Shown in pieces: positions 5,800 through 45,169 of a DNA stretch of 64,000 nucleotides; position 1 is the stretch's first letter, and each line of letters begins with the position of its first letter. Made by a program: the position numbers and the translations under genes. The DNA is from Solirubrobacteraceae bacterium (GTDB lineage Bacteria; Actinomycetota; Thermoleophilia; Solirubrobacterales; Solirubrobacteraceae), in assembly GCA_045805485.1 (NCBI GenBank), contig JBJMLC010000065.1, positions 16,395-80,394 of the forward strand. Reading direction: 5' to 3'. The notes under the pieces are model-generated. The model made no database searches. It saw only the letters and a program-made list of their open reading frames with translations, and was not told the origin of the DNA.

Positions 5800-5822
5800 A
5801 CCATCTGCCATCCTCTCTGAGG

Positions 5823-7349: not shown

Positions 7350-7382
7350 TGTCCTGGGTCGTCGGGTTTGCGGCTCAGGGCA

Positions 7383-13327: not shown

Positions 13328-13368
13328 CGCCCGCCCTCTCTCGTCCGGCAACCGCCATCGTGTCCGTC

Positions 13369-14409: not shown

Positions 14410-14446
14410 GCCGATCACGCTAACACGTGCCCGGCCTGACCGCCGC

Positions 14447-28491: not shown

Positions 28492-28750
28492 TGCCCTGAA
28501 TCGCAAATCCGACGGCGCCGTTCCGCGTGATGTTCGCGGCCGAACAGCGCCGTCAAGTGGGCACCGGATCCTGCCGATACGGGCTGTGCATGCCCGGCCA
28601 TCCGGCCCCTCCTGACCGGTCGCAACATCTGCTGCACACGAAGGACCAGCCCAGTCGCCCTGGTACTTTGACAGCGACCGCAGGGGTTGGGAGGTGCCGC
28701 TTACGTCAACCAGGCGCCATGGCAGCAGAGGTCGGACCGAGGGGTCCGGA

Positions 28751-30463: not shown

Positions 30464-31173
30464 TGGCCGAGGGACAGCGCATCCGGGCGATCGTGGTCGA
30501 TGACGACGCCGCGGTCCGCGAAGCCGTCCGCGACGCTCTGCAGCAGTCCGGAGTGGTGGTGATCGCCCAGGCCGCCGATGGGCGGGAGGGCATCGAGCTG
30601 GCCTGGCATTACAAGCCGGATGTCGTGGTGCTTGACGTGTTCATGCCCGGGGTGGACGGCGTCACGGCCATGCAGCGCATTCACGAGCGGCTCCCGGAGG
30701 CCTGCTGCATCATGCTCTCGGTGTCCGCGGACTCGGAGTTGGGGGTGCTGGCCCTCCGGGCGGGCGCCGCGGGATTTCTCACCAAGGGTGCCATCAGCCC
30801 TGAGAACCTGGCCGGGCTCATCCGCGGCGCCCTGGAGGGCGAGGTGGCCGCGTCTCCGAAGCTGGTGGCCGGAGTGGTGGCCGAGCTGCGGCGGACGCCC
30901 CAGGGGGGAATCGGGATGCGCCCCGTGCGCAGCGTTCTCACGCCCAGGGAATGGGAGGTCCTGGATCTGATGTCGCTCGGGCGCACGACGCGCCAGATTG
31001 CCGATGAGCTGGTGCTCTCGAATGAAACGGTCCGGACCCACATCAAGAACCTGATGCGCAAGCTCGGCGCCAGCTCCCGGAGCCAGGCCATCGAGCTCGG
31101 GGCCAGGGAGCGCCACGCCAATGACGGCGGTGAGGCTGACATCCACCCGCTGGCGCTACCGGGGCGACACTAG
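30460..31173 (+). CDS. NarL/LuxR family response regulator
   Basis: IVVDDD, VVLDVFMPGVDG, LTPREWEVL, TVRTHIKNLMRKL; GTGA overlap with kinase. Confidence 0.93.
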   Translation: MMAEGQRIRAIVVDDDAAVREAVRDALQQSGVVVIAQAADGREGIELAWHYKPDVVVLDVFMPGVDGVTAMQRIHERLPEACCIMLSVSADSELGVLALRAGAAGFLTKGAISPENLAGLIRGALEGEVAASPKLVAGVVAELRRTPQGGIGMRPVRSVLTPREWEVLDLMSLGRTTRQIADELVLSNETVRTHIKNLMRKLGASSRSQAIELGARERHANDGGEADIHPLALPGRH

Positions 31174-32273
31174 AACTTGATCGCGCCGTCCGGGAGCTCC
31201 ACGCCCGGGAACACACGCGCGCCGGCCCTGAGGAGGTTTTCGTCGCCCAGCGTCACGCCCTCTCCCAGGACCACGCCCCCCTCCAGGACGCAGTGATCGC
31301 CCAGGCTGGCCCGCGGTCCGATGATCGAGGCGCGAATCCGCGTGGAGCTGCCCACGGTCACCCCGTCCAGCAGGACCGCATCCTCGATGTGGCTTCCCGG
31401 CCCGACGGTCACGTTGCGGCCCATGACCGCCCGGCCACCCACGGTGGCTGAGGCGGCCACGGTGGAGCCCTCGCCGATCACAGCCGGTGCCACGGCCCGC
31501 CCGTCGATGCGGGCGCCGTCGGCCAGGACCCCGTGACCCTCATCCAGAGCGGCGCTCATGTCGGTTCTGACGTTGCCCTCCAGGATGTCGAAGGTCCCCT
31601 GGAGGTAGCGTTCAGGTGTCCCGATGTCGATCCAGTAGCCCTGGGCCTCGAAGCCGAACAGGCCCCGTCCCACCAGCGCCGGGAACACCTCACGCTCGAT
31701 CGACACGTTGCTGGGGGGCGGAGGCATCTCCTTCAGGACGGAGCGCTCCAGGATGTAGGCCCCGGCGTTGATCAAATTGGTGTCGATCTCGTCCGAGCTC
31801 GGCTTCTCCAGAAACTCGCTCACGGAGTGATCGGGGTTGCGCCGGACCAGCCCGTAGGCCGAGGGATCGTCGACGGCGATGAGCGCGATCGTCGCCGTGG
31901 CCCCGGTGGATTCGTGCTGGGCGAGCTGGGCGGTCAGATCGATGTCCGTGAGGACGTCGCCGTTCAGCATGAAGAAGCGCTCGGCGAGCAGCTCGCCCGC
32001 GAAGGCCAGCGCGCCGCCGGTCCCCAGCGGGACCGGCTCCTCCACGTAGCGAATGGCCACGCCGAGGTGGTCGCCGTCGCCCAGGACGCGCCGGACGCCC
32101 TCGGCGAAGAACCCGCAGGACAGGATCACGTCGTCCACGCCGTGCCAGCGCAGCCACCGGATCATCAGCTCCAGGTGGGGCCGGTTGGCCAGCGGAACCA
32201 CCGGCTTGGCCATGGTCGACGTCAGGGGGCGCAGGCGGGTGCCCTCTCCGCCGGCCAGGATCAGCGCTTGCAT
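31170..32273 (-). CDS. Mannose-1-phosphate guanylyltransferase-like NDP-sugar synthase
   Basis: ALILAGGEGTRLRPLT, PLGTGGA, NGDVL, FLEKP, WIDIGTP, C-terminal hexapeptide repeats. Confidence 0.9.
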   Translation of the reverse strand: MQALILAGGEGTRLRPLTSTMAKPVVPLANRPHLELMIRWLRWHGVDDVILSCGFFAEGVRRVLGDGDHLGVAIRYVEEPVPLGTGGALAFAGELLAERFFMLNGDVLTDIDLTAQLAQHESTGATATIALIAVDDPSAYGLVRRNPDHSVSEFLEKPSSDEIDTNLINAGAYILERSVLKEMPPPPSNVSIEREVFPALVGRGLFGFEAQGYWIDIGTPERYLQGTFDILEGNVRTDMSAALDEGHGVLADGARIDGRAVAPAVIGEGSTVAASATVGGRAVMGRNVTVGPGSHIEDAVLLDGVTVGSSTRIRASIIGPRASLGDHCVLEGGVVLGEGVTLGDENLLRAGARVFPGVELPDGAIKF

Positions 32274-32443
32274 CGTGCGGCAAGGTACAGCCTCGGCCTG
32301 CAAACCGGGCAGGAAACCCACCCTCCCCGGCGCCTGCGGCACACCAAAATCTAGTCTCTGCAAGGATGCTTCGCCTGACTAATGGTTACCGTCTGTCGTT
32401 CCAAGCCGTGACTGGTGGGTCGCCCTCGGCTTCAGGCAACGAC

Positions 32444-33118
32444 GTGCCCGATATCCGGAAGAACTTCGCTCAGCTCGATCAGCGGCTGGCAGACCTCAGA
32501 GAGCAGCTCTCCGGGCCGGCCGAGGATCCCGCGCCCCCACAGCCCCTGGCCCCGCCGCCCGAGAGGCGGCCGCTGCCCGAGCCCACACTGGCCGCGGCGG
32601 CCGCTGGGGAAGATCCCGGGTCCGAGACCGCCGAGGGCACTGAGGCGGCGGATCCCACCGGGGCCGCAGACCTGCCCAATCTCGAGGGCATCGAGCAGCT
32701 GGGCACCCAGATCGAGCAGCTCCTGACCGTCCGGGACCAGCTGCTCAGCGACGCCCGGGAACTCGTTCGGGCCTTCGAGCGCCGGCTGGACGAGCTGGAG
32801 AGCCAGGGGACGATCTCGGTCACGGTGTCTGCGCCCCCGCCCCGGCCCGCGTTCTTTGAGGGGATGGTTGCGCTGGTCGTATCGGGAGCCAGCCGGATCC
32901 AGACAATCCAGGTCCTGGAGGATTCCCTGGCCCGCATCCCGCACGTGGAGCGGACCTACATCAGACGCTGGCACGCCGGCCAGCTGTGGGTTGAGCTGAC
33001 CCTGAGTGACGGTGTGGAGCTGATCGGAGAACTCAACCGGGTCCTGCCGTTCCCGTTTGCCGTCCGCTCGGCCACCGGGCAGGAGATCGCGCTCAGCGTG
33101 GAGGAAGAGGGGGGCTGA
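32444..33118 (+). CDS. Hypothetical protein: two coiled coils, Pro-rich linker, small alpha/beta C-terminal domain
   Basis: Heptad patterns (FAQLDQRLADLREQL; IEQLGTQIEQLL...LDELE); start uncertain (32366-32444). Confidence 0.65.
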   Translation: MPDIRKNFAQLDQRLADLREQLSGPAEDPAPPQPLAPPPERRPLPEPTLAAAAAGEDPGSETAEGTEAADPTGAADLPNLEGIEQLGTQIEQLLTVRDQLLSDARELVRAFERRLDELESQGTISVTVSAPPPRPAFFEGMVALVVSGASRIQTIQVLEDSLARIPHVERTYIRRWHAGQLWVELTLSDGVELIGELNRVLPFPFAVRSATGQEIALSVEEEGG

Positions 33119-33158
33119 TCAGTGACGGTACGGGGGCGAGCGCCACGGAGGGCAAACG

Positions 33159-33461
33159 GTGACTGAATCCGAACGAAGCGCACTCTCGCAGGCGCTGGAA
33201 AGTGGATTGCCATACGTGGGGCTACGAGGCATGACACCGGATCCGAACCTGCTGCTGTACGTACCGGCGGGCGTGGCTCGCACCGCGGAGGTGGTTCCGC
33301 TGAGCCTCCAGGAGAATGTGCTGCGACTGGCCTGCGCCAGCCCACAGGCCGACCTCGAGCCCATTCGGAGCAGATTTCCCCGCCTGGCGCTGGACGTGTG
33401 CATCTCCGGCGCGGAGGAGATCCGCCAGCTTCGAGGCGCCATGAGTGGAGGCTCCGGATGA
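33159..33461 (+). CDS. Stand-alone GSPII_N/MshEN-C-like domain protein 1
   Basis: GLPYVGL...PDPNLLLYVPAGVART.EVVPL...VLRLACASP matches the GspE/PilB N-terminal alpha/beta subdomain; GGAGG RBS. Confidence 0.7.
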   Translation: MTESERSALSQALESGLPYVGLRGMTPDPNLLLYVPAGVARTAEVVPLSLQENVLRLACASPQADLEPIRSRFPRLALDVCISGAEEIRQLRGAMSGGSG

Positions 33462-33808
33462 ACCCCTCGGACATCGATGCCGCCCGGCGGGTGGCCGATC
33501 ACGCCGGCGTGCCCTTCGTGACCCTGGAGCCGACCCCCGGCGCGGAGGACAGCCACCGGGCTGCCGATCCGACTGCCCGCTCGCTGCTCTCCGAAGAACT
33601 CTGCCGCCAGTTCGGGATGCTGCCCATCGGAGTCCAGGACGGGACGGTCCTGATCGCCTCCGCGGAGCCCGTCCAGTATCTCCCCTACGAGGTGGCTGCC
33701 GCCCTGGGCGGGAGCCCCGTCAGCTTCGTGGTCGTGCCGGGCGACCAGCTGGCACGCGTCATGGCCCGCCGCCAAGATTCGATCCACACCGGGATGCCAG
33801 AACAATGA
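33458..33808 (+). CDS. Stand-alone GSPII_N/MshEN-C-like domain protein 2
   Basis: VADHAGVPFVTL...DPTARSLLSEELCRQFGMLPIGVQDGTVLIASAEP; ATGA overlap with upstream gene. Confidence 0.75.
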   Translation: MNPSDIDAARRVADHAGVPFVTLEPTPGAEDSHRAADPTARSLLSEELCRQFGMLPIGVQDGTVLIASAEPVQYLPYEVAAALGGSPVSFVVVPGDQLARVMARRQDSIHTGMPEQ

Positions 33809-34287
33809 GCACACCTGAGCACGAGCCGCTGGCCGCCGCGGTGGCCAGCCAGATCGAGGCGGTGGTGGCCGCAGCCGAGCAGGCGGCCAACGAGTTTCGC
33901 CGGCAGGTGGAGTCCTCGGCCAAGCAGCAGGCCGACCGCACCCGCCAGGAGGCCGAGGCCGAGGCCCGGCGGATCCGTCAGGAGGCGGCCACGTGGGCGG
34001 CCGAGTACCTCGCGGACTCCAAGCGGATCATCGACGAGTTCACCGCCGAGCGCATCGGGCGAATCTCCGGTGTGACCGATGAGCTCATCCAGGGTGCCGA
34101 ATCCGTTCAGCGCCGGTTCAGCGAGGCCCAGAACGTGCGCCGCCAGATGTACGACCTCATCTCCGCGCTGGGAGCGGCTGCCGAGGCGATCGCACTGGAG
34201 GCCCAGGTCTCACCCCCCGCTCTCCCCGCCGCCGGAACCGAGACCCCCGCCGAGGGCGGGACGGCGGACGTCGAGTCCGGCACCTGA
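33805..34287 (+). CDS. Coiled-coil hypothetical protein (DivIVA/ATP synthase b-like heptads)
   Basis: MSTPEHEPL start with ATGA overlap; VVAAAEQAANE...RQEAEAEARRIRQEA. Confidence 0.7.
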   Translation: MSTPEHEPLAAAVASQIEAVVAAAEQAANEFRRQVESSAKQQADRTRQEAEAEARRIRQEAATWAAEYLADSKRIIDEFTAERIGRISGVTDELIQGAESVQRRFSEAQNVRRQMYDLISALGAAAEAIALEAQVSPPALPAAGTETPAEGGTADVESGT

Positions 34288-34430
34288 GTAGGTTCTCCGG
34301 GCCCAGCGGACGGCGGCGTCCGCTCCAATGAGGACTTCTGCCGCTGAGCGGGAACGCTACGGTGATGTCATACACGTCAGGAGCCGGCTTCGGTAAGCCA
34401 GCCGGCTGAGTTCGCATCTGAGGAGATCTG

Positions 34431-35558
34431 GTGCACGGCCCCACCGAGCTCAACCGTCGCCGCCTGGTGATCGGCACGGTGGTGGGCCTGGCCGCCCTGG
34501 GGGGTCTGTACTTCCTGATCCCGAAGGTGGCCGGCCTGCACCAGACCTGGGGGCAGCTCCGGCGCGGCGACCCGGTGCTCCTGGCCGTGGCGGCCGCTCT
34601 GGAGCTCGTTTCGATCGGGGGCTATGCGCTGCTGTTCAGCACCGTGTTCAGCCGGGGGACGCCCAGGATCAACTGGCGGGCCAGCCTCCAGATACCACTG
34701 GCCGGCATAGCCGCCATCAGACTGCTGGCCGCCGCCGGGGCGGGAGGGGTGGCGGTCACAGTGTGGGCCCTGCTCCGGGCCGGTATGGATCGGGCCGTGA
34801 TCGCCTGCCGGATCGTGGCCATGTACACCCTGCAGTATTCGGTGTACCTGGGCGCCATGGTGGTGTGTGGGCTGGGGCTTCACTTCGGTGCCTTCCCGGG
34901 CGGCGGCTCGCCGGCGCTGACCCTGGTGCCCGCGCTTCTGAGCGCCGGGGCCCTGGTGCTCCTGGCCTGCATGGCGTTCGTTCCCGGGGATTTCCGACGA
35001 CGGCTGGAGTGGCTGTCGCACCGGCCGGGGGTGGTCGGCCGCCTGGCCTCGCGGTTGGCGTCGGCGCCTGAGCTGCTGGGCAGCGGAGTCCGCACCGCCG
35101 TTGACCTGGTCCGTCAGCGGCGCGTTGGGCTCGTGGGAGTGTTCATCTACTGGGGCTTTGACATAGCTGTCCTGGGGCTGTGCCTGCACGCCTTTGGGGA
35201 GGTCGTACCGGTGGCCGTACTGATCATGGGGTACTTCCTGGGCACGCTGGGAAGCCTGCTGCCATTACCGGGAGGGATCGGTGGGGTGGAGGGGGGCATG
35301 ATCGGAGCCTTTGTGGCCTTCGGGGTTCCCGGCGGACGCGCCGTGGTCGGGGTTCTGGCCTACCGGGCGATTTCGTTCTGGCTGCCCACGCTCCCGGGGA
35401 TCGGCGGATACCTGGGCCTGCGCAAGACGGTCAAGGGCTGGCAGGCCGCCGACGAGGCGCTGCAGCCGGAGCCGGTCCCGTCGTCGGCCCCAGGCCCGGC
35501 CTCGGCCTCGTCCTCGGGGGAGGGATCCGTGCCCGCGGGTGCGCGGGACGCTAAGTGA
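34431..35558 (+). CDS. Lysylphosphatidylglycerol synthase TM-domain (flippase-like) protein
   Basis: Multi-TM; LPLPGGIGGVEGGM, VLAYRAISFWLP. Confidence 0.88.
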   Translation: MHGPTELNRRRLVIGTVVGLAALGGLYFLIPKVAGLHQTWGQLRRGDPVLLAVAAALELVSIGGYALLFSTVFSRGTPRINWRASLQIPLAGIAAIRLLAAAGAGGVAVTVWALLRAGMDRAVIACRIVAMYTLQYSVYLGAMVVCGLGLHFGAFPGGGSPALTLVPALLSAGALVLLACMAFVPGDFRRRLEWLSHRPGVVGRLASRLASAPELLGSGVRTAVDLVRQRRVGLVGVFIYWGFDIAVLGLCLHAFGEVVPVAVLIMGYFLGTLGSLLPLPGGIGGVEGGMIGAFVAFGVPGGRAVVGVLAYRAISFWLPTLPGIGGYLGLRKTVKGWQAADEALQPEPVPSSAPGPASASSSGEGSVPAGARDAK

Positions 35559-37195
35559 GCCAGTACCGGGACAGTCCGACCGTGGGCCAGCTCCTCTGGC
35601 GCTTCATGCGCTGGGTGGGGAGGCACGTCCGCGGCCAGGTCGTGCGGCGCGTGGGCGGCCCGGCGCGGGCCCGGGTGATCGTGCTGTTCGGGGCCGTGCT
35701 GGCCGTCAACGGCGCCGACACGGCCACCGTGGGCGCGGTGGCGCCTCAGCTGGAGAGCGCTCTGCACATCGGCGACGCCAAGATCGGCCTGCTCACGTCG
35801 GTCTCCCTGCTCGTCGGCGCGGTGTTCACGATCCCGGTGGGGCTGCTCGTCGACCGTTCCAAGCGCATGCCGATTCTGGCCGCCAGCATCGTGCTGTGGA
35901 GCGTGGCCTCGCTGATGAGCGCCTTCGCCGGGAGCTATTCGGAGCTGCTGCTCACCCGCCTGGCCCTGGGAGCCGTCGCCGCCACGGCCGGCCCGGCCAT
36001 CGCGTCGCTGACCGGCGACTATTTCCCAGCTCGGGAGCGGGGCCAGGTGTACGCGTACATCCTGGGCGGGGAGGTCGCCGGTACGGCGGTCGGCTTCATC
36101 ATCAGCGGCTCGGTGGCCAGTCTGATCGACTGGCGGCTGGCGTTCGTCCTGCTGGCCATCCCGGGCTTCTTTCTAGCCCGCGAGCTCTTGCGGACGGTGC
36201 CCGAGCCGCTCCGCGGTGGGCAGAGCCGGCTGGAGCCCGGGGTGGCAGACCTTGGGGAGGCGCTGGCGGCGGCCCACCAGCGGGCCGCGCAGTCGCCGCA
36301 GGAGGGAGCGGCCGGCGACGGAGGGGTCGAGGCTGACGATGACCTGGCCCATCAGGCGGCCCAGAGGCAGGGGGCCAGACCCGACCCGCGGCTGGTGCTG
36401 ACCGAGGACCCGCAGGACATGAAGCTGATGCGGGCCATTCGCTACATCCTGTCCATCCCCAGCAACCTGCTGATGATCATCGGCTCGTCGCTGGGCTACT
36501 TCTTCTTCTCCGGCCTTCAGACGTTCGCGCTGGTCTTCATCCTCGGCCACTACAACACCGGCCAGGCCACGGCCGAGCTGGTCCTGGCCCTCCTCGTCGT
36601 CGGGGCCCTGATCGGGACCCTTGTCGGCGGTCGCCTCACGGATGTCATGCTCCGACGGGGGAACCTGTCCGCCCGGGTCGTGGTTCCGGCGGTGTGCTAC
36701 GTGGCGGCCGCCCTGCTCCTGATCCCAGGGTTCGTGTCCACGAGCCTGACCCCCGCGATCTGGTTCGACGTGGCTGGCGCAGCCCTGATCTCGGCCGCCA
36801 ACCCGCCGCTGCAGGCGGCCAGGCTGGACATCGTGCCCGCCGGGCTTTGGGGCCGAGCCGAGAGCGTGCGCACGTTCGTCCGCTCGATGGCCCAGGCGCT
36901 GGCTCCGCTGCTGTTCGGCGGATTGGCCAGCCTGGTGGCCGGGTTCGTGCCACAGCAGGCTCCCATCGGCACCCACCCCAACCACCACAAGGTGGCCAGC
37001 GGGTCCGGAACCGGGCTCGAGGTGAGCCTGCTGGTCATGCTGGTCTCGCTCATCGCAGCTGGTGTCGTCCTGTACCGCGCGCGCGTGCGCTACCCGACCG
37101 ACGTGGCCACGGCCGGTGCCTCGCGCCAGGGTCACGAGCGCCCCCCGGTGGCGGTGGTGGCAGTCGATCCGGCCGGCGGCTCGGTACCGGGGTAG
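35555..37195 (+). CDS. MFS transporter
   Basis: GLLVDRSKR motif A variant, SLTGDYFPARERG, GGRLTD; GTGA overlap. Confidence 0.9.
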   Translation: MSQYRDSPTVGQLLWRFMRWVGRHVRGQVVRRVGGPARARVIVLFGAVLAVNGADTATVGAVAPQLESALHIGDAKIGLLTSVSLLVGAVFTIPVGLLVDRSKRMPILAASIVLWSVASLMSAFAGSYSELLLTRLALGAVAATAGPAIASLTGDYFPARERGQVYAYILGGEVAGTAVGFIISGSVASLIDWRLAFVLLAIPGFFLARELLRTVPEPLRGGQSRLEPGVADLGEALAAAHQRAAQSPQEGAAGDGGVEADDDLAHQAAQRQGARPDPRLVLTEDPQDMKLMRAIRYILSIPSNLLMIIGSSLGYFFFSGLQTFALVFILGHYNTGQATAELVLALLVVGALIGTLVGGRLTDVMLRRGNLSARVVVPAVCYVAAALLLIPGFVSTSLTPAIWFDVAGAALISAANPPLQAARLDIVPAGLWGRAESVRTFVRSMAQALAPLLFGGLASLVAGFVPQQAPIGTHPNHHKVASGSGTGLEVSLLVMLVSLIAAGVVLYRARVRYPTDVATAGASRQGHERPPVAVVAVDPAGGSVPG

Positions 37196-37385
37196 GGCCG
37201 GAGGTTCCCGCACTTCGCGGCATCTCAGTGCTCCCGCCTCGGCCTGGAGTCGCTACCGTCCCGTCTGTTTGACATGCTTGCGAGTGCCTCTGGCTGTCCA
37301 GGGCCTTCGCCAGCGCGGGCCGAGCACAGGCGCCGGCCTATGGGGCGGCGCGCGTTCAGTTGGCTGACCCGGCGGCGCGCACACC

Positions 37386-38408
37386 ATGACAACTGCTTCC
37401 GCAAGCCACATACCTGCCGAGTTATCCCGATTCGCCATCGGCTTCGATCACCGTGATCGGGCACGGCTGCACGCCCTGATCGACGAGGTGCTTGATTCCG
37501 AGCGCTGGACCGAGGCGGAGATGGTGGACCGGCTGGAGGCGACCTGGGAGGCGTGGAACGGCGCGCCGGCTGTGGCCGTGTCCAGCTGGACGGGTGGTGC
37601 GCTGGCGGCGCTGGAGTTCGCCGGCGTGCGGGGGGAGACCGTGCTCTGCCCGTCGAACACGTTCATGGCCACGCCGCTGGCCGCGCTCGGAGCCGGCGCC
37701 CGGGTGGAATTCGTCGATTGCAACCGGCACGACCTGTGCATGTCCCTGGAGCACTTCCAGGCGCAGGCCGAGCGCCATCGGCCCCGAGCGGCGATCCTGG
37801 TCCACATCGGCGGCCACATCGCCTTCGAGGCCGAGCAGATCGCCGAGTACTGCCGGCAGGAGCGGATCTTCCTGATCGAAGATTGCGCGCACGCCCACGG
37901 GGCCTCATGGGGTGACCGCCGGCCCGGCACCTGGGGGGATGCCGGGGTGTACTCGCTGTACGCCACCAAGACCATCTCCACGGGCGAGGGCGGCGTGCTC
38001 GTATCACGGCGTCCCGAGGTTCTGGAGCACGCCCGCGCCTTTCGCAATTACGGCAAGCCGGACTACGCCGTCCAGGGCCTCAACTTCCGGATGAGCGAGT
38101 TCACCGCCGCCCTGGGGCTGATCGGAGTCGAGCGTCTCCAGGACATCGTGCGCTGGAAGAACGAGATGGCTCGCCGTCATCTGGATCCGGTCTATCCGAG
38201 CCACATGGACCTCCCTGAGGGCATGGTCTCCGGGCTGTACAAGTACATCGTCTTCGACTGGCTCGAGCGTTCGACGGGGCGCGTCTACGACGAGCCCTGT
38301 CACCGGATCATGGGTCACGATGTGGACCTGCCAAACACCGACTGGGTGGCTCGCAACCACTCCTGCGTTCCGCTCTACTACCGGCCGGAGGGGGACGATC
38401 ACTCATGA
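37386..38408 (+). CDS. DegT/DnrJ family sugar aminotransferase
   Basis: NTFMAT, VHIGG, IEDCAHAHG, SLYATKTISTGEGG (PLP lysine), GLNFRMSE. Confidence 0.9.
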   Translation: MTTASASHIPAELSRFAIGFDHRDRARLHALIDEVLDSERWTEAEMVDRLEATWEAWNGAPAVAVSSWTGGALAALEFAGVRGETVLCPSNTFMATPLAALGAGARVEFVDCNRHDLCMSLEHFQAQAERHRPRAAILVHIGGHIAFEAEQIAEYCRQERIFLIEDCAHAHGASWGDRRPGTWGDAGVYSLYATKTISTGEGGVLVSRRPEVLEHARAFRNYGKPDYAVQGLNFRMSEFTAALGLIGVERLQDIVRWKNEMARRHLDPVYPSHMDLPEGMVSGLYKYIVFDWLERSTGRVYDEPCHRIMGHDVDLPNTDWVARNHSCVPLYYRPEGDDHS

Positions 38409-41134
38409 GGGTTCTCGTCACCGGCGGGTCGGGCTTCATCGGGTCCCACGTCGTGGATCGGCTGCGAGCCCACGGTCACGAGCCCGTGATCTACGACCTG
38501 CGCCCCTCGCCGTGGCACGAGGCGGGGAGCGTGGAGACAGTTCTGGGTTCGATCACCGATCGCGAGGCGCTGGAGCGGGCCCTGCACAGCTGTGACGCCG
38601 TGGCGCACCTGGCTGCCGTGGCCGACGTCAACGACGTGCATGCCTCGCCTGAGGACGCCGAGCGGGTCAACGCGCGCGGAACCGTGGCCGTGCTGGAGGC
38701 CGCGCGCCGGGCCAGCGTGAAACGGATCGTCTACGCCTCGACGATCTGGGTGTATTCGGACTGCCACGGGGATGCGGTCGACGAGGAGACGCTCCTGCCC
38801 GCGCCCAGCCATCTCTACACGAGCACCAAGCTGGCCGGCGAGCTCTACTGCAAGGCCTACCAGGAGCTCTACGGGATCGACTACACGATCCTGCGTTTCG
38901 GAATCCCCTACGGGCCCCGGGCCCGGGAGGCGGCTGTCATCCCCGCCTTCGTGGGCAAGGCGTTGCGGGGCGAGCCGCTGACGCTGGCCGGGGACGGGAG
39001 CCAGTCCCGGCGCTTCGTGTACGTGGAGGATCTGGCCGAGGGCGTAGCGGTGTCCCTGGCCGATGTGGCCTCGGGCCGGGTGTACAACCTGGCCAGCGAG
39101 GAGAACGTGACCATCCGCCAGATCGCCGAGAGCGTGAGGGAGATCCTGGGCGACGTGGAGATCGTCTTCACCGAGGCCCGGGCGGGCGATTTCGGCGGCA
39201 AGGTCGTGTGCAGCGAGCGGGCCAGGCGTGAGCTGGGCTGGAGCGCGGCCACGCCATTCTCGGACGGCGTGCGCAAGTACGTGGACTGGCGCCTGGAGCA
39301 GGAGAAGCACAGGGCGGAGATGGAGGAGAGCGCCGTCATCCCGGCGGGCGAGCCTGACGCCGAGGCCAGGCCGCGCCACGTCCTGATCATCTCGGCGGAC
39401 ATCGGGGAGGGCCACGACCTTCCGGCACGGGCGGTGGCCCGCGAGGTCAAGGACGACGACCCCGACGCGCAGGTGGCGATCGTCAACGGCCTGCCGGCGA
39501 TGGGAGTGGTGCTGACCAAGACGCTGCGGGAGAACTCGGCCTTCATGTTCCGCTGGGTGCCCTGGCTGTTCGACCTCCAGTACACGCTGTTCATGAATTT
39601 CTGGCCCGTTCGGCGCCTGGCCTCGTGGCTACTGTGGCTGTTCGGCCGGCGGGGGCTGTTGAGACTGATCAGGGCCCATGACCCGGACCTGATCCTCTCG
39701 ACCTATCCGGGGGTCACCGCGCTCCTCGGGCAGCTTCGTCGCAAGGGCCGGCTGGAGGTGCCGTGTTACTCGTCGATCACCGACCTCGCCGGGCTCCAAT
39801 TCTGGGCCCACCCCGGGATCGACCTGCACTTCATAACCCACCCTGAGTCCGCCGAGGAGGTGGAGCGGATCGCCGGCCCGGGAAGCGTGCGCTGGGCCAA
39901 GCCCCCCACCTCACCTGCGTTCCTGGCCGCCCGGTCGCGCTCGGACGCCCGCCGGGCTCTGGGCCTTCCCGCTGAGGGCAAGGTGATCGCGGTCTCAGGA
40001 GGCGGCTGGGGTGTGGGCGACCTGCTGGGTGCCACCCGGGCCGCGTTGCTGGTGCCGGACGCGATCGTGCTCTGCCTGTGTGGTCGCAACGACAAGCTTC
40101 GGGCACGAGTCGCCAAGCATCTGGGCGACGACCCGCGACTGCGGCTGATGGGCTTCACCGACCGGATGGGCGACATCCTGGCGGCGAGCGACGCCCTCAT
40201 CCACTCCAGCGCCGGGCTCACTGTGCTCGAGGCCATCATCCGAGGCTGCCCGGTCATCTCCTACGGCTTCGGCTACGGGCATGTCCGGGCCAGCAACCAC
40301 GCCCTGGAGCGCTTCGGGCTGGCCGAGGTGGCTCGCCACGAGCGTGACCTGGCCCCGGCTCTGGAGCGGGCTCTGGCCCACCGCCCGGAGCCGGATCCGT
40401 CCTTCGCCCGCCGGCCATCCACAGCCTCCCTGATGCTCTCCAACGAGCGGCGTATGACACCGCTTCCCCGCTGGCGGCTGCGGACCGTCCGGGCCGCGGT
40501 CACCTCGGCGGCCGTGGTCGCCGTGGCCGCCTGGACGTTGACGACGAGCGCCTCGTACCACCTCATGTCGCACTTCGTTCACATGCGGCCGGTCAGCTCG
40601 GTGTCCACCAGCCGGCCGGAGGTCGGACTCCTGGTTGACGTCTCGGCCGCGGACATGCCCCGGCTGGCGGCAGCGCTGCGTGCACATCGCGTTGATGCCT
40701 CGTTCGCGGTCAGCCATGCCCCCACCGCAGCCGAGCTGCGCCTGCTGCAACCGGGTGACCAGGCCATCCCGAGACTGGGCGGCGGCGGCCTCGTGCGGTG
40801 GCTGGAAACGGGCGACCAGCTTCATCGGCTCACCGGCCCGCTGGGGCTTCACCACCCGCATCGTGACTTCATGTACGCCTCCAGCGGGCCGAGCTTCGGC
40901 CAATGGTTGCTGGCCAAGAGCGCGGGCGGCCGGCTGATCGGCGGCGCCGTGCGCCTCCAGGATGCCGACGACGCCATCGGGCCCGTGCGGATGGGCGAGG
41001 TCGTGGAGATCAACGCCTCGAGTCCTCTCGAGGTGCTGGCGATCGTCGATCACCTGAACCGCGTGCTGCGCGGCGACCATCTGCGGGCGGTCTCGGTCGG
41101 CCAGCTGATGCGCGACGCCGGCGTTTCGGTCTAG
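38405..41134 (+). CDS. Fusion: NAD-dependent epimerase/dehydratase + MGDG-synthase/UgtP-like GT28 + degenerate polysaccharide-deacetylase-like domain
   Basis: TGGSGFIG and YTSTK (SDR); SADIGEGH, STYP, ITD, SGGGWGVG, CGRN, AGLTVLEA (GT28); TM helix then NodB-like pattern. Confidence 0.85.
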   Translation: MRVLVTGGSGFIGSHVVDRLRAHGHEPVIYDLRPSPWHEAGSVETVLGSITDREALERALHSCDAVAHLAAVADVNDVHASPEDAERVNARGTVAVLEAARRASVKRIVYASTIWVYSDCHGDAVDEETLLPAPSHLYTSTKLAGELYCKAYQELYGIDYTILRFGIPYGPRAREAAVIPAFVGKALRGEPLTLAGDGSQSRRFVYVEDLAEGVAVSLADVASGRVYNLASEENVTIRQIAESVREILGDVEIVFTEARAGDFGGKVVCSERARRELGWSAATPFSDGVRKYVDWRLEQEKHRAEMEESAVIPAGEPDAEARPRHVLIISADIGEGHDLPARAVAREVKDDDPDAQVAIVNGLPAMGVVLTKTLRENSAFMFRWVPWLFDLQYTLFMNFWPVRRLASWLLWLFGRRGLLRLIRAHDPDLILSTYPGVTALLGQLRRKGRLEVPCYSSITDLAGLQFWAHPGIDLHFITHPESAEEVERIAGPGSVRWAKPPTSPAFLAARSRSDARRALGLPAEGKVIAVSGGGWGVGDLLGATRAALLVPDAIVLCLCGRNDKLRARVAKHLGDDPRLRLMGFTDRMGDILAASDALIHSSAGLTVLEAIIRGCPVISYGFGYGHVRASNHALERFGLAEVARHERDLAPALERALAHRPEPDPSFARRPSTASLMLSNERRMTPLPRWRLRTVRAAVTSAAVVAVAAWTLTTSASYHLMSHFVHMRPVSSVSTSRPEVGLLVDVSAADMPRLAAALRAHRVDASFAVSHAPTAAELRLLQPGDQAIPRLGGGGLVRWLETGDQLHRLTGPLGLHHPHRDFMYASSGPSFGQWLLAKSAGGRLIGGAVRLQDADDAIGPVRMGEVVEINASSPLEVLAIVDHLNRVLRGDHLRAVSVGQLMRDAGVSV

Positions 41135-41137
41135 AGA

Positions 41138-42088
41138 CTAGGCGCGCTGGGTCCAGCTGTCGCGCGGGTTGCGCAGCGGCTTGAGGTGGGGCTCGATCTG
41201 GTCTCGCAGATGCTCGTACTGGGGCGTCAGCGACAGCTTGGTCCCCAGCTCCTCAAGCGGCTCGTCCACGTCAAAGCCCGGGCCAATGGTGGCGATCTCG
41301 AACAGCACGCCCGAGGGCTCACGGAAGTAGATGGAGCGGAAGTAGAACCGGTCGATGATCGGCGTGGGGCGCCCCCCATGGGCGAGGACCGCCTCCCGCC
41401 AGGCCTCGTGCTCCTCCGGCAAGGAGGCGAACGCGACGTGGTGGACGGAGCCCGCACCCTGGAGCCCGGACTCGGCCGGCGGAGGCTCCATCAGGTAGGA
41501 GCCGCCTCGGCGCTGCCCGCGAACCTCGAACGAGAGGATCGTTCCATCTGGTCCCACGACGACGGGCTCGGAGAAGCCGAGGCCGTCCTGGAGCAGGGCC
41601 CGGCTGCTCTGGGGGTCGGCTGCGTAGGCCCGCACGGCGTGAAACCCCTGAAGCGCCACGTCGGCCGGGATCTCCGGGTGGTTGGCGATCAGCGGCTCGT
41701 CGGGCACTGGCTCGTCACGCAGTTCGTGGGTCAGGCCCTCGGGATCATCGAACACGATCGCGTCCTGGTTGTCCTGGGCGGCCACGCCGTGGCTTGCCAG
41801 GCGGTCGATCCAGAAATCGAGAGCCTCCCGGTTGGCAACGCGCCACACAACGCGATGGATCATTCCTGCCCCCGGGCGTCCGAGAGGAATTCCCGGGTAC
41901 TCGAAGAACGTGATGTCTGATCCCGGATCTGCCTTTTCGTCGGCGTAGAAGAGGTGGTAGACCGAGGTGTCGTCCTGGTTGATCGACTTTTTGACCAGGC
42001 GGAGTCCCAGGACGCCGGCGTAAAAGTCGACGTTCTGCTGAGCGTCCGCGGTGATCGCGGTCACGTGGTGGATGCCCTCGAGCTTCAC
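41138..42088 (-). CDS. VOC family ring-cleaving dioxygenase/glyoxalase
   Basis: GIHHVTAI, YHLFY, VHHVAF, DRFYFRSIYFREPSGVLFEIAT. Confidence 0.92.
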   Translation of the reverse strand: MKLEGIHHVTAITADAQQNVDFYAGVLGLRLVKKSINQDDTSVYHLFYADEKADPGSDITFFEYPGIPLGRPGAGMIHRVVWRVANREALDFWIDRLASHGVAAQDNQDAIVFDDPEGLTHELRDEPVPDEPLIANHPEIPADVALQGFHAVRAYAADPQSSRALLQDGLGFSEPVVVGPDGTILSFEVRGQRRGGSYLMEPPPAESGLQGAGSVHHVAFASLPEEHEAWREAVLAHGGRPTPIIDRFYFRSIYFREPSGVLFEIATIGPGFDVDEPLEELGTKLSLTPQYEHLRDQIEPHLKPLRNPRDSWTQRA

Positions 42089-42100
42089 GCCCGGGCTCCC

Positions 42101-43063
42101 CTACCAGTGCACGCCGCGCGTGGCCCGCACGAACGCCCGCTGTTCCGGCGTGAGGTCCGCCTGCTTGCCCTTGCCGTCGCCCTCGGGCAGCAGCTGGTAG
42201 GCCCGGTTGGCCACAAGGTCCTGGGCGCCGGGGGCCACCGCGTAGGTGACCTGCGCCAGCGTGCCCAGCGTGGTGGCTATGCGCTTGGGGCGCCGGCGGA
42301 TGGCGTCCACGATCATGCCCGCGGCCTCATCGGGCGATAGCGTGGGAAAGCGGTCATAGATCTTCGTGGGGGCGATCATGGGCGTGCGGACCAGGGGCAT
42401 GTAGACGGTCGTCACGTGGACGCGGTCGGCGATTACCTCGGGGGCCATCGAGCGTGAGAACGCATCCAGCGCCGCCTTCGAGCCCACGTAGGCGGAAAAG
42501 CGGGGCGTGTTGACCTGCAACCCGATCGTGGAGATGTTGACGATGTGGCCCCGCTTGCGCTCGCGCATCGTGGGCAGCAGGTCAAGGATCAGCTTGACCG
42601 GAGCGAAGTAGTTCAACTGCATCGTGCGCTGGTAATCGTGGAAGCGGTCGTAGGTGCGGTGAACCGACCGCCGAATCGACTTCCCCGCGTTGTTGATCAG
42701 GATGTCCACGGCCTGGTGCTGCTCGAGCACCTCCTTGGCCATGCGGTCGATGTCGTCCGGATCGCTGAGGTCGCAGGAATGGGCGTAGCCCACACCTCCC
42801 AGGCTGTCGATCTCGTCGGCCAGCTCGTCGAGCTTGGACTTGGTCCGGGCCACCAGCAGGACGACCCCCCCTGCCTCGCCGATCTTCAGAGCGCTGGCTC
42901 GCCCGATGCCTGAGGACGCGCCGGTGATGAGGACAACCCTCCCGTTGACCCGCTCCTTGAGCGAGGGCGCCAGCATACCGCCTCCAACGGGTATGCGCCG
43001 CCCGAAGGCCTGGAGGGTTCGAACTCCCTCTGCGGCGAGCTCAAGGGGATTGGGCGGCGCCAT
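42101..43063 (-). CDS. SDR oxidoreductase (fatty acyl-CoA reductase Acr1-like)
   Basis: ITGASSGIG, NNAGKSIRRS, RFHDYQRTMQLNYF, YVGSK, YMPLVRTPMIAPT. Confidence 0.88.
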   Translation of the reverse strand: MAPPNPLELAAEGVRTLQAFGRRIPVGGGMLAPSLKERVNGRVVLITGASSGIGRASALKIGEAGGVVLLVARTKSKLDELADEIDSLGGVGYAHSCDLSDPDDIDRMAKEVLEQHQAVDILINNAGKSIRRSVHRTYDRFHDYQRTMQLNYFAPVKLILDLLPTMRERKRGHIVNISTIGLQVNTPRFSAYVGSKAALDAFSRSMAPEVIADRVHVTTVYMPLVRTPMIAPTKIYDRFPTLSPDEAAGMIVDAIRRRPKRIATTLGTLAQVTYAVAPGAQDLVANRAYQLLPEGDGKGKQADLTPEQRAFVRATRGVHW

Positions 43064-43135
43064 CTCTTCGCACCGTATCACCACGGCTGGTGCCGGTAGC
43101 GCTGGTGGCGCCGTTACCGTGAGGGCATCAAGGAG

Positions 43136-44020
43136 GTGTCTCTCCCACCTGATCACGGGCCGGTTGAGTCGGCGTCCTTCGCCGCCTGCCTGGCCACGAT
43201 TCTGGAACTGCCGCTGGACGCCCTCCCACGACCCCAGCCTGAGGAGGGCCCGGCCATCGGCTGGACGACCTCAAGGTGGTTGGGCGGTCTCGGCCTGGCG
43301 ATCGCGCCGGTCGCCGAGCCGCGCACGTTCTCCTGGCCCGGCCCGTGGATCGCCCGGGCTCGGCCTCCGGACGCGACCCAGCGGAGATGCGTGGTCATGT
43401 TCGGGGTTCCGTCCGGTGTGGTGTGGGATCCGGTCCTCGCCCACGGCGACCATGTTGGAGCGGCCGTGGTCCCGATCGAGAACGAGTGGATCGAGGGCGG
43501 CTTCGTGGTCGCCGCGGCGGACATTGCGCTGGCGCGCCCGGTGCTCGCCTCGGCCCCCACAGGGACGGGCACCGTGGAGGGCATCTTCGTCTCGGATTCG
43601 GCGGGCGAGGCCATGACAGCGCTGCCCAGAGCCCGCGCCCTGGCCAACCGGGGCCTGGAGGGCGATCGTCACCTGACCGGCCGAGGGACCTTTCCCTCCG
43701 GTCTCCCGGGCAGTGCGCTAACGCTGATCGCGGCCGAGGTGTGCGAGTCATTCGATCCTCCCCTGGCGCCGGCCGAGCACCGGCGAAACCTGGTCACCCG
43801 GGGGATCGAGCTGAACGCGCTGGTGGGGGTGGAGTTCACAATCGGAGGAGCGCGATGTCGCGGGATGCGGCTGTGTGAGCCCTGCACGGTGGTGGAGCGC
43901 TACGCCTCCCGCCCCGTCCTGCGTGCGCTGGTGCACCGAGGTGGGCTGCGCGCCGACATCGTTGAGGATGGCGAGCTGGCGGTGGGAGATCTCATCCGGG
44001 CGTTGCCGAGCCAGGCCTGA
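43136..44020 (+). CDS. MOSC domain protein with extra N-terminal domain
   Basis: GLEGDRH, RRNLVTRG, LCEPC, GGLRADIVEDGELAVGD. Confidence 0.85.
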   Translation: MSLPPDHGPVESASFAACLATILELPLDALPRPQPEEGPAIGWTTSRWLGGLGLAIAPVAEPRTFSWPGPWIARARPPDATQRRCVVMFGVPSGVVWDPVLAHGDHVGAAVVPIENEWIEGGFVVAAADIALARPVLASAPTGTGTVEGIFVSDSAGEAMTALPRARALANRGLEGDRHLTGRGTFPSGLPGSALTLIAAEVCESFDPPLAPAEHRRNLVTRGIELNALVGVEFTIGGARCRGMRLCEPCTVVERYASRPVLRALVHRGGLRADIVEDGELAVGDLIRALPSQA

Positions 44021-45063: not shown

Positions 45064-45169
45064 CGGCGAAAGGATGTCCACCCCCAGCCTCGGCCACCCG
45101 CCTGATCAGCGGGCGGCCGAGGTGGTGCGGTTGCGCAAAGGGAGCTTCGGGATGGGTGAGAGGAAGACC

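Follow-up and report, generated by a model that had tools for sequence, protein, structure and literature searches.

Known Systems for Lipid Headgroup Modification

By analogy, the systems closest to the one described here appear to be HexSDF and GpgSDF, each combining a lipid glycosyltransferase, a deacetylase and an MprF-like flippase. In Clostridioides difficile, according to the accessible part of the report (PMC10128005), the MGDG-synthase-like HexS, the polysaccharide deacetylase HexD and the MprF-like flippase HexF produce aminohexosyl-hexosyl-diradylglycerol, an amino-sugar glycolipid to which a role in balancing membrane charge is ascribed, and a two-component system is encoded nearby. 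For GpgSDF of Pseudomonas aeruginosa, the accessible sections (PMC12713373) describe a GT4 synthase (GpgS), a COG3233 deacetylase thought to be cytosolic (GpgD), a UPF0104/COG0392 flippase candidate (GpgF) and phosphatidylglycerol as the acceptor, and mention neither an SDR nor an aminotransferase. In Staphylococcus aureus, as far as the available text goes (PMC8866510), the inner-leaflet GT28-type diacylglycerol glycosyltransferase YpfP/UgtP works with the glycolipid-flipping MFS protein LtaA, forming a neutral diglucosyl lipid that anchors lipoteichoic acid; the same source lists Spns2 as an MFS lipid transporter.

The locus analyzed here lies in a 64,000-nucleotide stretch of DNA (the window) from a Solirubrobacterales MAG, representing a soil actinobacterium. 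Compared by description and not by sequence, it resembles HexSDF in its MGDG-synthase-like glycosyltransferase, CE4 deacetylase and flippase-domain-only MprF-like protein, and the window also contains a histidine kinase/response regulator pair (28694–31173). It differs in that the glycosyltransferase is one part of a fusion that also contains a GalE-like SDR, a membrane helix and a CE4-fold domain predicted to be catalytically dead, that a DegT aminotransferase and a Spinster-like MFS protein are added, that the CE4 gene lies outside the window, and that the flippase-like gene is linked in one clade only. With GpgSDF it shares the synthase-deacetylase-flippase logic and the flippase family, while the glycosyltransferase and deacetylase families, the SDR and the aminotransferase set the two apart. 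The combination of a GT28-type enzyme with an MFS protein recalls YpfP/LtaA, but the solved relatives of the window MFS protein are Spinster proteins, with LtaA absent among them at E ≤ 0.01.

The enzyme families on which the system described here draws also make up the Arn (4-amino-arabinose) pathway of Gram-negative bacteria: besides an extended SDR and a DegT-family aminotransferase, these comprise a glycosyltransferase that targets a lipid, a flippase, and a CE4-fold enzyme that de-acylates the lipid-linked sugar. In Arn the SDR is decarboxylating and carries a fused formyltransferase, undecaprenyl phosphate is the substrate of a GT2 enzyme, and a GT-C transferase completes the pathway; no such component is found here, and the window SDR lacks the decarboxylase residues. 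If the reading proposed below is correct, a soil actinobacterial gene set would be akin to the charge-tuning lipid systems of C. difficile and Pseudomonas. The idea of such a lipid as an alternative to MprF, put forward in a preliminary description of this DNA, has precedent in known amino-glycolipids but lost its novelty with HexSDF (2023) and GpgSDF (2025).

Gene Organization of the Locus

All four co-oriented genes named in the preliminary description were recovered on the forward strand, with Pfam matches above the curated cut-offs. The first (34431..35558) encodes a 375-aa LPG_synthase_TM/UPF0104 membrane protein (PF03706) and the second (35555..37195) a 546-aa Spinster-like MFS transporter (PF07690, MFS_1). 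After a gap of 190 bp (37196..37385) follow a gene for a 340-aa PLP aminotransferase of the DegT/DnrJ/EryC1 family (37386..38408; PF01041) and one for a 909-aa protein in which an SDR, a GT28-type glycosyltransferase, a helix and a CE4-fold domain are fused (38405..41134). Direct reading of the sequence confirmed both reported overlaps: GTGA at 35555–35558, where the MFS start overlaps the LPG_synthase_TM stop, and ATGA at 38405–38408, between the DegT and fusion genes. The scanned gap yielded neither a terminator-like nor a promoter-like site, and tblastn found no remnant of a CE4 gene in it. Because GC3 is 0.85–0.91 with GC2 the lowest, and orthologues at 58–85% identity occur in many genomes, the four ORFs are real genes and not chance ORFs.

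The Conserved Unit

Gene order was counted at 80 species-level loci, out of roughly 571, the position of CE4 being scored at the 72 loci with sufficient flank. The conserved unit consists of a CE4 deacetylase, DegT and the 909-aa fusion, and not of the four-gene set. The pairing of DegT with the SDR-glycosyltransferase holds: the two genes are translationally coupled, and DegT lies immediately 5′ of the fusion at 76 of the 80 loci, three of the others being at contig ends and one degraded (L098). An intact CE4 gene is located immediately 5′ of DegT in 64/72 loci. This usual third partner, which the preliminary description does not mention, is absent from the window, and in this genome it has been relocated to another contig, beside the squalene-hopene cyclase gene (shc). 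The motifs TFDDG, H-x-x-x-H, RPPYG and LLHD of the operon CE4 are invariant in A2. The CE4 N-terminus is not hydrophobic in operonic copies and mildly hydrophobic in the others. In a genome of another family (G038), separate glycosyltransferase, CE4, SDR and DegT genes are still clustered. Another genome (G335) has a GT-CTD protein without an SDR next to CE4 and no DegT, an arrangement that, judged by its gene content, may represent a minimal synthase-plus-deacetylase module.

The Fusion Protein and the Aminotransferase

The fourth gene had been described as an epimerase-GT28 fusion, which is correct for its first two domains but misses the end of the protein, where a helix and a CE4-fold domain follow. 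The first domain, an extended GalE-like SDR (38405..39334, residues 1–310), matched PF01370 (Epimerase) with 191.9 bits over residues 3–230, and among solved structures it comes closest to UDP-hexose 4-epimerases (4zrm, 3.8e-40, then 6wjb, 7ys8 and 2p5u). It carries GGSGFIG and YTSTK, and reads S-T-I-W at the position that in 4,6-dehydratases holds an Asp-Glu pair. With GalE-type residues present and both dehydratase and decarboxylase residues absent, it looks like a GalE-type 4-epimerase and not like a dehydratase.

The second domain (39365..40474, residues 321–690) is a GT-B glycosyltransferase of the MGDG-synthase/UgtP (GT28) type, matching MGDG_synth PF06925 (45.7 bits, residues 338–487) and Glyco_trans_1_4 PF13692 (30.5 bits, residues 552–657); its score against the diglucosyl-diacylglycerol synthase model PRK13609 was 101 bits, below the cut-off of 500. 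The kinship claimed earlier is borne out by its solved relatives at E ≤ 1e-10, all of them diacylglycerol glycosyltransferases (UgtP 9wde, 1.7e-20; MGD1 4wyi, 3.4e-18), with no match to MurG at that threshold. Its GEGH aligns with GNGH and GGGH, so that the GxGH motif is conserved.

The moderately hydrophobic helix (40469..40552, residues 689–716; Kyte-Doolittle 19-residue maximum 1.53) has a counterpart at the same site in 31/31 homologues, with maxima of 1.22–2.05, mostly flanked by an Arg-rich stretch before and an acidic S/T-D-D/E-x-Y after. AF2 modeled it as one unbroken helix of 25 residues (model residues 369–393). It is probably a single transmembrane anchor, with the N-terminus of the protein inside and the C-terminus outside.

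The third domain (40553..41134 including the stop codon, residues 717–909, 193 aa) adopts a CE4/NodB fold in the AF2 model (pLDDT 84), with structural matches to BA0150 and Bc1960 (VIA Z 16.6) and the CE4 pseudoenzyme BA3943 as the top Foldseek match (E 3.1e-6); ArnD (8t0j) was also met in the structural comparison. No His or Asp is invariant across 19 orthologues, and no Pfam family matched at E ≤ 10. On the model, this domain is predicted to be a pseudo-deacetylase, with a CE4 fold and without conserved catalytic or metal-binding residues. With E ≤ 1e-3 as the limit, its family counts 303 representatives; among 50 longer ones chosen from 150 listed, 34 have an MGDG_synth glycosyltransferase fused, and two are joined to an SDR without a glycosyltransferase domain.

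The DegT protein matched PF01041 (DegT_DnrJ_EryC1) with 183.7 bits, and its translation shows a Lys in YATKTISTGEGG and an Asp in EDCAHAHG, which we take to be the significant motif residues of the family. Its best PDB matches are 2-deoxy-scyllo-inosose aminotransferases (1.7e-28). All NCBIfam equivalog scores are far below the cut-offs (PseC 131.9, cut-off 423.5; LegC 115.6; DesI 105.6; ArnB 77.5); since both DegT and the SDR fall far under every such cut-off, the sugar cannot be named.

Proposed Pathway

Domain families, the CE4 fold, and gene order with its conservation are observed directly; the pathway that would join them is conditional. The whole is best explained by a lipid-headgroup pathway comparable to HexSDF and GpgSDF, a reading whose chances are evenly balanced, and the balance leans toward an amino-sugar lipid as the product. 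The pathway would start on the cytoplasmic side with modification of UDP-hexose or UDP-HexNAc by the GalE-like SDR domain and DegT, most likely through oxidation at C-4 followed by transamination. The preliminary description had treated conversion to an NDP-aminosugar as the known activity of such a pair; because the SDR looks GalE-type and not like a dehydratase, this step is put conditionally here. The fused GT28 domain would then move the sugar onto diacylglycerol or a glycosyl-diacylglycerol, and the CE4 deacetylase would strip an N-acetyl group, giving a cationic lipid that bears an amino sugar, possibly a diamino sugar. The pseudo-CE4 domain, tethered outside the membrane by the helix, probably binds the headgroup and does not cut it. 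In this lineage, LPG_synthase_TM and the Spinster-like MFS protein may carry the lipid to the outer leaflet. The cationic lipid proposed earlier is plausible as an amino-glycolipid, with HexSDF as precedent, while its link to flipping is weakly supported.

The LPG_synthase_TM and MFS Proteins

The LPG_synthase_TM protein covers positions 2–302 of the 302 of PF03706 (82.6 bits) and exceeds the cut-off of TIGR00374 (flippase-like domain; 53.1 bits, cut-off 43.2). It shares this membrane domain with MprF but, at 375 aa, consists of the flippase-like domain only, without an aminoacyl-PG synthase domain, and reaches 27.8 bits with the MprF equivalog, whose cut-off is 600. The genome holds four paralogues, the window copy included, and a sequence search gave no solved relative at E ≤ 1. 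The MFS protein (PF07690, 147.3 bits) has the Spinster homologue 6e8j (7.8e-13), SPNS1 and SPNS2 as its best solved relatives, all over the N-terminal half only.

The two gene pairs, presented earlier as one system, are unlinked in most relatives: LPG_synthase_TM lies 5′ of the operon in 5/80 loci and MFS in 9/80. In the tree of the fusion protein, all linked loci belong to a single clade, which also holds a locus with neither gene (L081), so the linkage represents one inherited rearrangement and not repeated selection. At two loci (L053 and L105), LPG_synthase_TM, MFS, CE4, DegT and the fusion stand in one row, with CE4 between MFS and DegT. Away from the operon the two genes recur as a pair: MFS orthologues occur in 17/24 same-genus genomes and adjoin an LPG_synthase_TM-family gene in eight of the 17, a different paralogue in three of these. 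Eight of the 21 same-genus genomes bearing the fusion show no close LPG_synthase_TM orthologue (matches of ≤53% only) and two more have only ambiguous pieces; two genomes, both <80% complete, have the orthologue and no detected fusion.

That these two proteins serve the amino-sugar lipid is possible, though we incline against it. Equally tentative is the reading in which the core pathway is unchanged and they are an unrelated neighbor pair, perhaps exporting or flipping some other lipid or solute, which arrived 5′ of the operon once, in a common ancestor, and pushed CE4 out. The absence of linkage in 71/80 loci and the single clade of linked ones, the fusion without this orthologue in at least eight genomes and the 190-bp gap agree with it, as do orthologues located beside inositol monophosphatase, DLH and GNAT genes (L033, L035 and L040). 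In G011 and G021 the neighbors are UDP-glucose dehydrogenase and an SDR, which separates the pair from this operon but again places nucleotide-sugar enzymes next to it. Against an unrelated pair also stand its co-orientation with the operon, kept through speciation in about 10 lineages, and HexF, GpgF and LtaA, through which, in the accessible parts of the reports, both families serve lipid glycosyltransferases (PMC10128005, PMC12713373, PMC8866510).

Acceptor, Amine Source and Product

The acceptor might not be diacylglycerol but a phospholipid, PG or PI converted to an aminophospholipid as by GpgS, or, in this lineage, a bacteriohopanepolyol; we regard this as unlikely. The accessible part of a Solirubrobacter polar-lipid description gives an unidentified aminophospholipid among the lipids and no glycolipid (PMC10722151), and GlcN-PG is given as the product of GpgSDF (PMC12713373, in its available sections); however, the only solved relatives of the glycosyltransferase are the diacylglycerol enzymes, and GpgS is a GT4. 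For hopanoids speak four genomes (G000, G023, G436 and G438) in which the sole close CE4 homologue lies immediately 5′ of squalene-hopene cyclase, in an HpnH/IspH-HpnG/HpnE-like cluster, and the LPG_synthase_TM orthologue of G011, whose immediate neighbors are an HpnH-like gene and one for a class-III aminotransferase. The SDR also matches HpnA with 99 bits, but far under the cut-off of 367, and no match to the HpnL model was found. Since 12 same-genus genomes, six of them ≥90% complete, have the fusion and no detected SHC, hopanoids are not the general acceptor.

Alternatively, the SDR could be an ordinary UDP-Glc/GlcNAc 4-epimerase feeding UDP-Gal or UDP-GalNAc to the glycosyltransferase, with CE4 deacetylation as the sole source of the amine and DegT acting in another pathway or on the lipid-bound sugar. 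True 4-epimerases are its closest solved relatives, its S/T-Y-K catalytic set is GalE-like, and the putative minimal module of G335 does without SDR and DegT. We consider this rather improbable: the ATGA coupling of DegT to the fusion, their adjacency in 76/80 loci and the location of DegT beside a separate SDR in G038 argue that the SDR and DegT catalyze successive steps.

Least likely is a product other than a membrane-charge lipid. It could be a glycolipid on which a wall polymer is anchored or primed, recalling UgtP-type products that anchor lipoteichoic acid (PMC8866510, available text), the GT-C (PMT_2) gene 3′ of the fusion in L014 and the GT87, WecA-like and PAP2 genes flanking the G335 module. 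Or it could be soluble and aminoglycoside-like, with the MFS protein as its exporter, recalling the aminoglycoside-pathway enzymes that are the closest solved relatives of DegT. Against both, no conserved cyclitol synthase, polymerase or further glycosyltransferase occurs at the locus (sets of 20 and 80 loci), and the glycosyltransferase has its own membrane helix.

Organization of the locus

All four open reading frames named in the preliminary description are present in the window in the same orientation, and the codon-position G+C of each follows the pattern of real genes. They code for a 375-aa LPG_synthase_TM protein (34431-35558, plus strand), matching PF03706 over the whole profile with 82.6 bits, a 546-aa MFS transporter assigned by Pfam (35555-37195, plus strand), a 340-aa DegT-family aminotransferase (37386-38408, plus strand; PF01041, 183.7 bits, above the cut-off) and a 909-aa fusion protein (38405-41134, plus strand), in which Pfam recognizes an Epimerase-family SDR and an MGDG_synth/GT-B glycosyltransferase (GT), as had been described. 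The GTGA and ATGA start/stop overlaps reported for the two gene pairs are likewise read in the sequence. The pairs lie 190 bp apart, and a terminator and promoter scan of positions 33000-43500 revealed nothing in this gap, with counts at the level of shuffled sequence. The source metagenome-assembled genome comprises 3.2 Mb in 169 contigs and is about 90% complete, with the window on contig C65; the G+C content is about 69%, and the organisms of its nearest protein relatives assign it to Solirubrobacterales/Solirubrobacteraceae. The four-gene observation is confirmed, and is extended here.

Conservation of the DegT-fusion operon

The fusion is encoded in 21 of the 24 genomes of the same genus, and DegT adjoins it in all of the 20 loci fetched. 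Directly upstream of DegT, 18 of 19 same-genus loci carry an intact CE4 deacetylase gene of about 216 aa, in which the motifs TFDDG, H-x-x-x-H, RPPYG and LLHD are all invariant. A larger set, collected with an alignment of diverse proteins comprising the GT and the C-terminal domain (CTD) of the fusion as a query, consists of 80 species-level loci, the best of 571 confirmed; these are close Solirubrobacterales relatives throughout. Among these best 80 of 571, DegT adjoins the fusion in 76, the remaining four being located at contig ends (three) or degraded (one), and 64 of the 72 with enough flanking sequence have CE4 as the adjoining gene.

In a genome of another family (G038) the SDR and GT are unfused, and the genes for GT, CE4, SDR and DegT nevertheless form a cluster; a genome of genus g16 (G335) encodes an SDR-less protein comprising GT, helix and CTD, followed by CE4, with no DegT nearby. 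Together with the 80 loci, these gene sets indicate that the lipid GT with a pseudo-CE4 tail and a true CE4 form the oldest module, to which SDR and DegT were added as a pair. The G335 module (L135, 6736-13485) is flanked by WecA-like, GT87 and PAP2 genes and located between prfA/prmC and the atp operon.

Some loci show individual peculiarities. The fusion aligns in three pieces in G004 (L029), owing to a long-read assembly error or gene decay; DegT and the SDR part appear degraded in L098, again by assembly error or decay; and in G021 (L014) a GT-C (PMT_2) gene (12780-14432, plus strand) directly follows the fusion.

Predicted activities of the SDR, DegT and glycosyltransferase

The SDR domain carries GxxGxxG, S/T and YxxxK motifs, and its best PDB matches are UDP-hexose 4-epimerases. 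Its scores with TIGR01179 for 4-epimerases (123.7 bits) and TIGR01181 for 4,6-dehydratases (147.9 bits) are below the respective cut-offs of 262.3 and 365. NDP-hexose 4,6-dehydratases of the RmlB/PglF type are marked by Asp-Glu after the catalytic Thr, and decarboxylating SDRs by Ser-Glu. In the fusion, A-S-T-I-W-V-Y is aligned to S-S-T-G-G-A-I-Y of the GalE 4zrm; both marks are missing, and the readings as a 4,6-dehydratase and as a decarboxylase are rejected on these residues.

The DegT translation contains YATKTISTGEGG and EDCAHAHG, which we take to represent the PLP lysine and the Asp of D-x-A-H, respectively. All named equivalogs have cut-offs far above the scores of this protein, which are highest for PseC, LegC and DesI. 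DegT would aminate a keto-sugar released by the GalE-like SDR.

Residues 321-690 of the fusion comprise an MGDG_synth N-terminal domain (PF06925, 45.7 bits against a cut-off of 25) and a GT-B C-terminal domain, with a GxGH motif; the score with NCBIfam PRK13609 is 101 bits against a cut-off of 500. The solved relatives of the GT at E ≤ 1e-10 are only UgtP, a processive diacylglycerol glucosyltransferase, and MGD1 of plants, MurG being absent from them. The N-terminal G-x-G-H, the His of which has a catalytic role in GT28 enzymes, aligns with UgtP and MGD1. Diacylglycerol is the putative acceptor, as judged from these relatives only.

Production of an amino-sugar lipid by DegT and the fusion, as originally proposed, is the best available explanation of this gene set and is probably correct. 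Gene order and fusion are most naturally read as the reaction order, in which the SDR would act first, followed by DegT, the GT and CE4; this succession has its counterpart in the families of enzymes that make up the Arn pathway.

The membrane helix and the C-terminal domain

Downstream of the GT, residues 689-716 of the fusion form a hydrophobic segment with a Kyte-Doolittle maximum of 1.53. An alignment of 31 diverse homologues shows the segment in every one, with poor conservation of its sequence; in most of them several Arg residues come before it and an acidic S/T-D-D/E-x-Y stretch after it. In the AF2 model (pLDDT 91.5) it is a single 25-residue helix that connects two well-folded domains. 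It is predicted to be a single membrane anchor, placing the C-terminal domain outside.

The 193 residues past the helix were identified by fold search alone, the sequence methods being unsuccessful. In the window copy no Pfam family, PF01522 included, matches at E ≤ 10, and only stray matches appear in 4 of 19 orthologues; phmmer against PDB found no matches at E ≤ 10, and hhalign with the operonic CE4 returned a probability of 2.2%. The AF2 model built from 19 orthologues (pLDDT 84) has a VIA Z of 16.6 to BA0150 and Bc1960, with 175 residues aligned at an rmsd of 2.9, and all of its 15 Foldseek matches at E ≤ 1e-3 are CE4 proteins, the first being the CE4 pseudoenzyme BA3943. According to the model, the predicted fold of this domain is that of CE4/NodB. 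There is no His or Asp among its invariant residues in the 19 orthologues, indicating that both the CE4 metal site (Asp-His-His) and the catalytic site are gone, and the domain is filed as a putative pseudo-CE4. Complex prediction with the operonic CE4 scored 0.00, which counts neither for nor against binding.

A profile of the domain retrieved 303 cluster representatives at E ≤ 1e-3. Among 50 longer representatives picked from 150 listed, MGDG_synth is present in 34 and the Epimerase domain in 3, with both in one (P0189). A phylum-wide profile search of 401 genomes found the domain in 5, all of them from the family of the window.

LPG_synthase_TM and MFS genes

The LPG_synthase_TM protein contains a TIGR00374 flippase-like domain scoring above the cut-off. 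Unlike bifunctional MprF, it has no C-terminal aminoacyl-PG synthase domain, as evidenced by its 27.8 bits with the MprF model NF033480 (cut-off 600). A PDB sequence search with this protein gave no matches at E ≤ 1. The best solved relatives of the MFS protein, covering its N-terminal half only, are Spinster-type 6e8j (7.8e-13), then SPNS1 and SPNS2; such lipid transporters top the list of its 48 solved relatives at E ≤ 0.01, and LtaA is not among them.

In the window LPG_synthase_TM is co-oriented with the operon, with the MFS gene and the 190-bp gap between them. The preliminary description treated the two gene pairs as one system; judged by the linkage in relatives that it named as a test, they are mostly unlinked, since among the best 80 of 571 loci 5 have LPG_synthase_TM and 9 have MFS upstream of the operon. 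In the tree of fusion proteins all these LPG_synthase_TM- or MFS-linked loci fall into one clade with the window, and the position of the membrane genes upstream of the operon is therefore a single inherited rearrangement. The full row LPG_synthase_TM-MFS-CE4-DegT-fusion is present in L053 and L105, while CE4 is lost from the locus in the window, L047, L048, L049 (genome G023) and L112. In G023 (L013/L049, 6144-9984) LPG_synthase_TM, MFS and DegT align in several frames, through assembly error or decay.

Orthologues of LPG_synthase_TM with at least 63% identity occur at other places in 13 of 24 same-genus genomes; among the 21 genomes bearing the fusion, 11 have an orthologue and 8 only more distant paralogues, 2 being ambiguous. 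MFS orthologues are encoded in 17 of the 24 genomes, and in 8 of these 17 they adjoin an LPG_synthase_TM-family gene, which is a different paralogue in G011, G021 and G022. LPG_synthase_TM and MFS are thus a gene pair in their own right. A second context joining such a pair to nucleotide-sugar enzymes is seen in G021 (L144, 5584-10853) and G011 (L145, 5031-10247), where UDP-glucose dehydrogenase and SDR epimerase genes are convergent to MFS and a distant LPG_synthase_TM paralogue. Elsewhere in G011 (L034, 8187-13319) the LPG_synthase_TM orthologue is convergent to class-III aminotransferase and HpnH-like radical-SAM genes, with squalene-hopene cyclase about 7 kb away.

Flipping of the operon's lipid by these two proteins, the role first proposed for them, rests on the one inherited gene order and their recurrent pairing. 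Precedent makes this role plausible, while the linkage to the operon is confined to one clade, and the assignment is perhaps rather less probable than its converse.

Relocation of CE4 and the hopanoid genes

No CE4 gene was found in the window. Elsewhere in the same genome, the only gene closely related to the operonic CE4 (55% identity) is found on contig C74 (L127, 7913-8602, minus strand) beside the squalene-hopene cyclase gene shc (5804-7771, minus strand). CE4 is located directly upstream of shc on the same strand in this genome, G023 and the genomes of L047 and L048 (loci L127, L128, L141 and L142), and the three relatives likewise lack CE4 at the DegT operon. The cluster also contains genes for an HpnE-like oxidase, an IspH/nucleosidase fusion and an HpnH-like radical-SAM protein; CE4 heads it, with a GNAT gene and rpsL on its other side. 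Five genomes were checked for such a CE4, and every one has exactly one copy, located either in the operon or at another site. Operonic copies of the window's genus have an N-terminus that is not hydrophobic, and in the other copies, including that on C74, it is mildly hydrophobic and conserved in sequence.

The adjacency of CE4 and shc suggests a hopanoid as the sugar acceptor. As a general acceptor it is ruled out, since squalene-hopene cyclase has no match in 12 of the 21 fusion-bearing genomes of the genus, 6 of which are at least 90% complete. The HpnA model scores 99 bits on the SDR (cut-off 367.65), and HpnL gave no match.

Comparison with known amino-sugar lipid systems

Bacterial surface charge is set by cationic lipids, and it determines in turn how well the cells tolerate cationic peptides, metals and drying. 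To our knowledge, HexSDF (2023) and GpgSDF (2025) are the only amino-sugar-lipid gene sets worked out besides MprF. HexSDF of C. difficile consists of the MGDG-synthase-like HexS, the polysaccharide deacetylase HexD and the MprF-like, flippase-only HexF, yielding aminohexosyl-hexosyl-diradylglycerol (PMC10128005), and GpgSDF of P. aeruginosa produces GlcN-PG by means of a GT4, a COG3233 deacetylase acting, in its authors' view, in the cytosol, and a UPF0104 flippase candidate (PMC12713373). A third source describes flipping of the YpfP glycolipid by the MFS protein LtaA, and Spns2 as an MFS lipid transporter (PMC8866510). An amino-sugar lipid as an MprF alternative, put forward in the preliminary description, is thus a concept published earlier for other bacteria.

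Each of the three families that make up the synthase-deacetylase-flippase scheme is represented, and both candidate flippase kinds have precedents beside lipid GTs in HexSDF, GpgSDF and YpfP-LtaA. Unlike HexSDF and GpgSDF, the locus includes an SDR and DegT step, a fusion and a pseudo-CE4 tail, lacks CE4 in the window and has a weakly linked candidate flippase gene. It carries the scheme into a widespread, mostly uncultured soil lineage, with two additions, a step catalyzed by an aminotransferase and a pseudo-enzyme domain not known to have been studied. A description of the lipids of one Solirubrobacter strain lists DPG, PG, PI, PIM and an unidentified aminophospholipid, with no glycolipid among them (PMC10722151). 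A literature search, with subscription journals outside its coverage, found no report on an SDR-GT28 fusion, a DegT-fusion operon or glycolipid genes of Solirubrobacterales. If confirmed, the pathway would name the genes behind the unidentified amino-lipids of Thermoleophilia and provide a natural case of fusion between a lipid glycosyltransferase and an enzyme of nucleotide-sugar metabolism.

A more elaborate scheme, speculative and improbable when taken as a whole, would have abundant soil Solirubrobacteraceae make a previously undescribed, doubly cationic diamino-sugar lipid, its amines arising from transamination and deacetylation. A one-polypeptide, membrane-anchored synthase would modify the nucleotide sugar, glycosylate the lipid and receive the flipped headgroup at a pseudo-deacetylase domain facing outward. 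In the clade of the window, LPG_synthase_TM and the Spinster-like protein would have been recruited as a translocator of two proteins, and CE4 would have come under hopanoid-operon control.

Neighboring genes

Upstream of the locus by 3 kb, a PAS histidine kinase and a LuxR-type response regulator are encoded at 28694-31173 (plus strand), and this pair accompanies the locus in G023 as well. A neighboring two-component system controls HexSDF, but nothing links the present pair to the operon. The gene at 31170-32363 (minus strand) codes for a sugar-1-phosphate nucleotidyltransferase with an LbH tail, matching best the model of mycobacterial mannose-1-phosphate guanylyltransferase (302 bits, cut-off 440), and its synteny with the locus is shared by L048, L049, L092 and L102. 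Two proteins of 250 aa (32366-33118, plus strand) and 280 aa (33445-34287, plus strand), the latter with a low-complexity Pro/Ala/Gly tail, have no Pfam or NCBIfam match and are both kept in G023 and L048. A 765-aa FG-GAP/PKD repeat protein (45074-47371, plus strand) is apparently unrelated to the amino-lipid locus. Convergent to the fusion, positions 41138-43156 (minus strand) encode a double glyoxalase/VOC protein and a classical SDR of the PRK07201 C-terminal type (389 bits). Such a classical SDR is located 0-9.4 kb downstream of the fusion in 73 of the best 80 of 571 loci, on the opposite strand in 72 of these 73.
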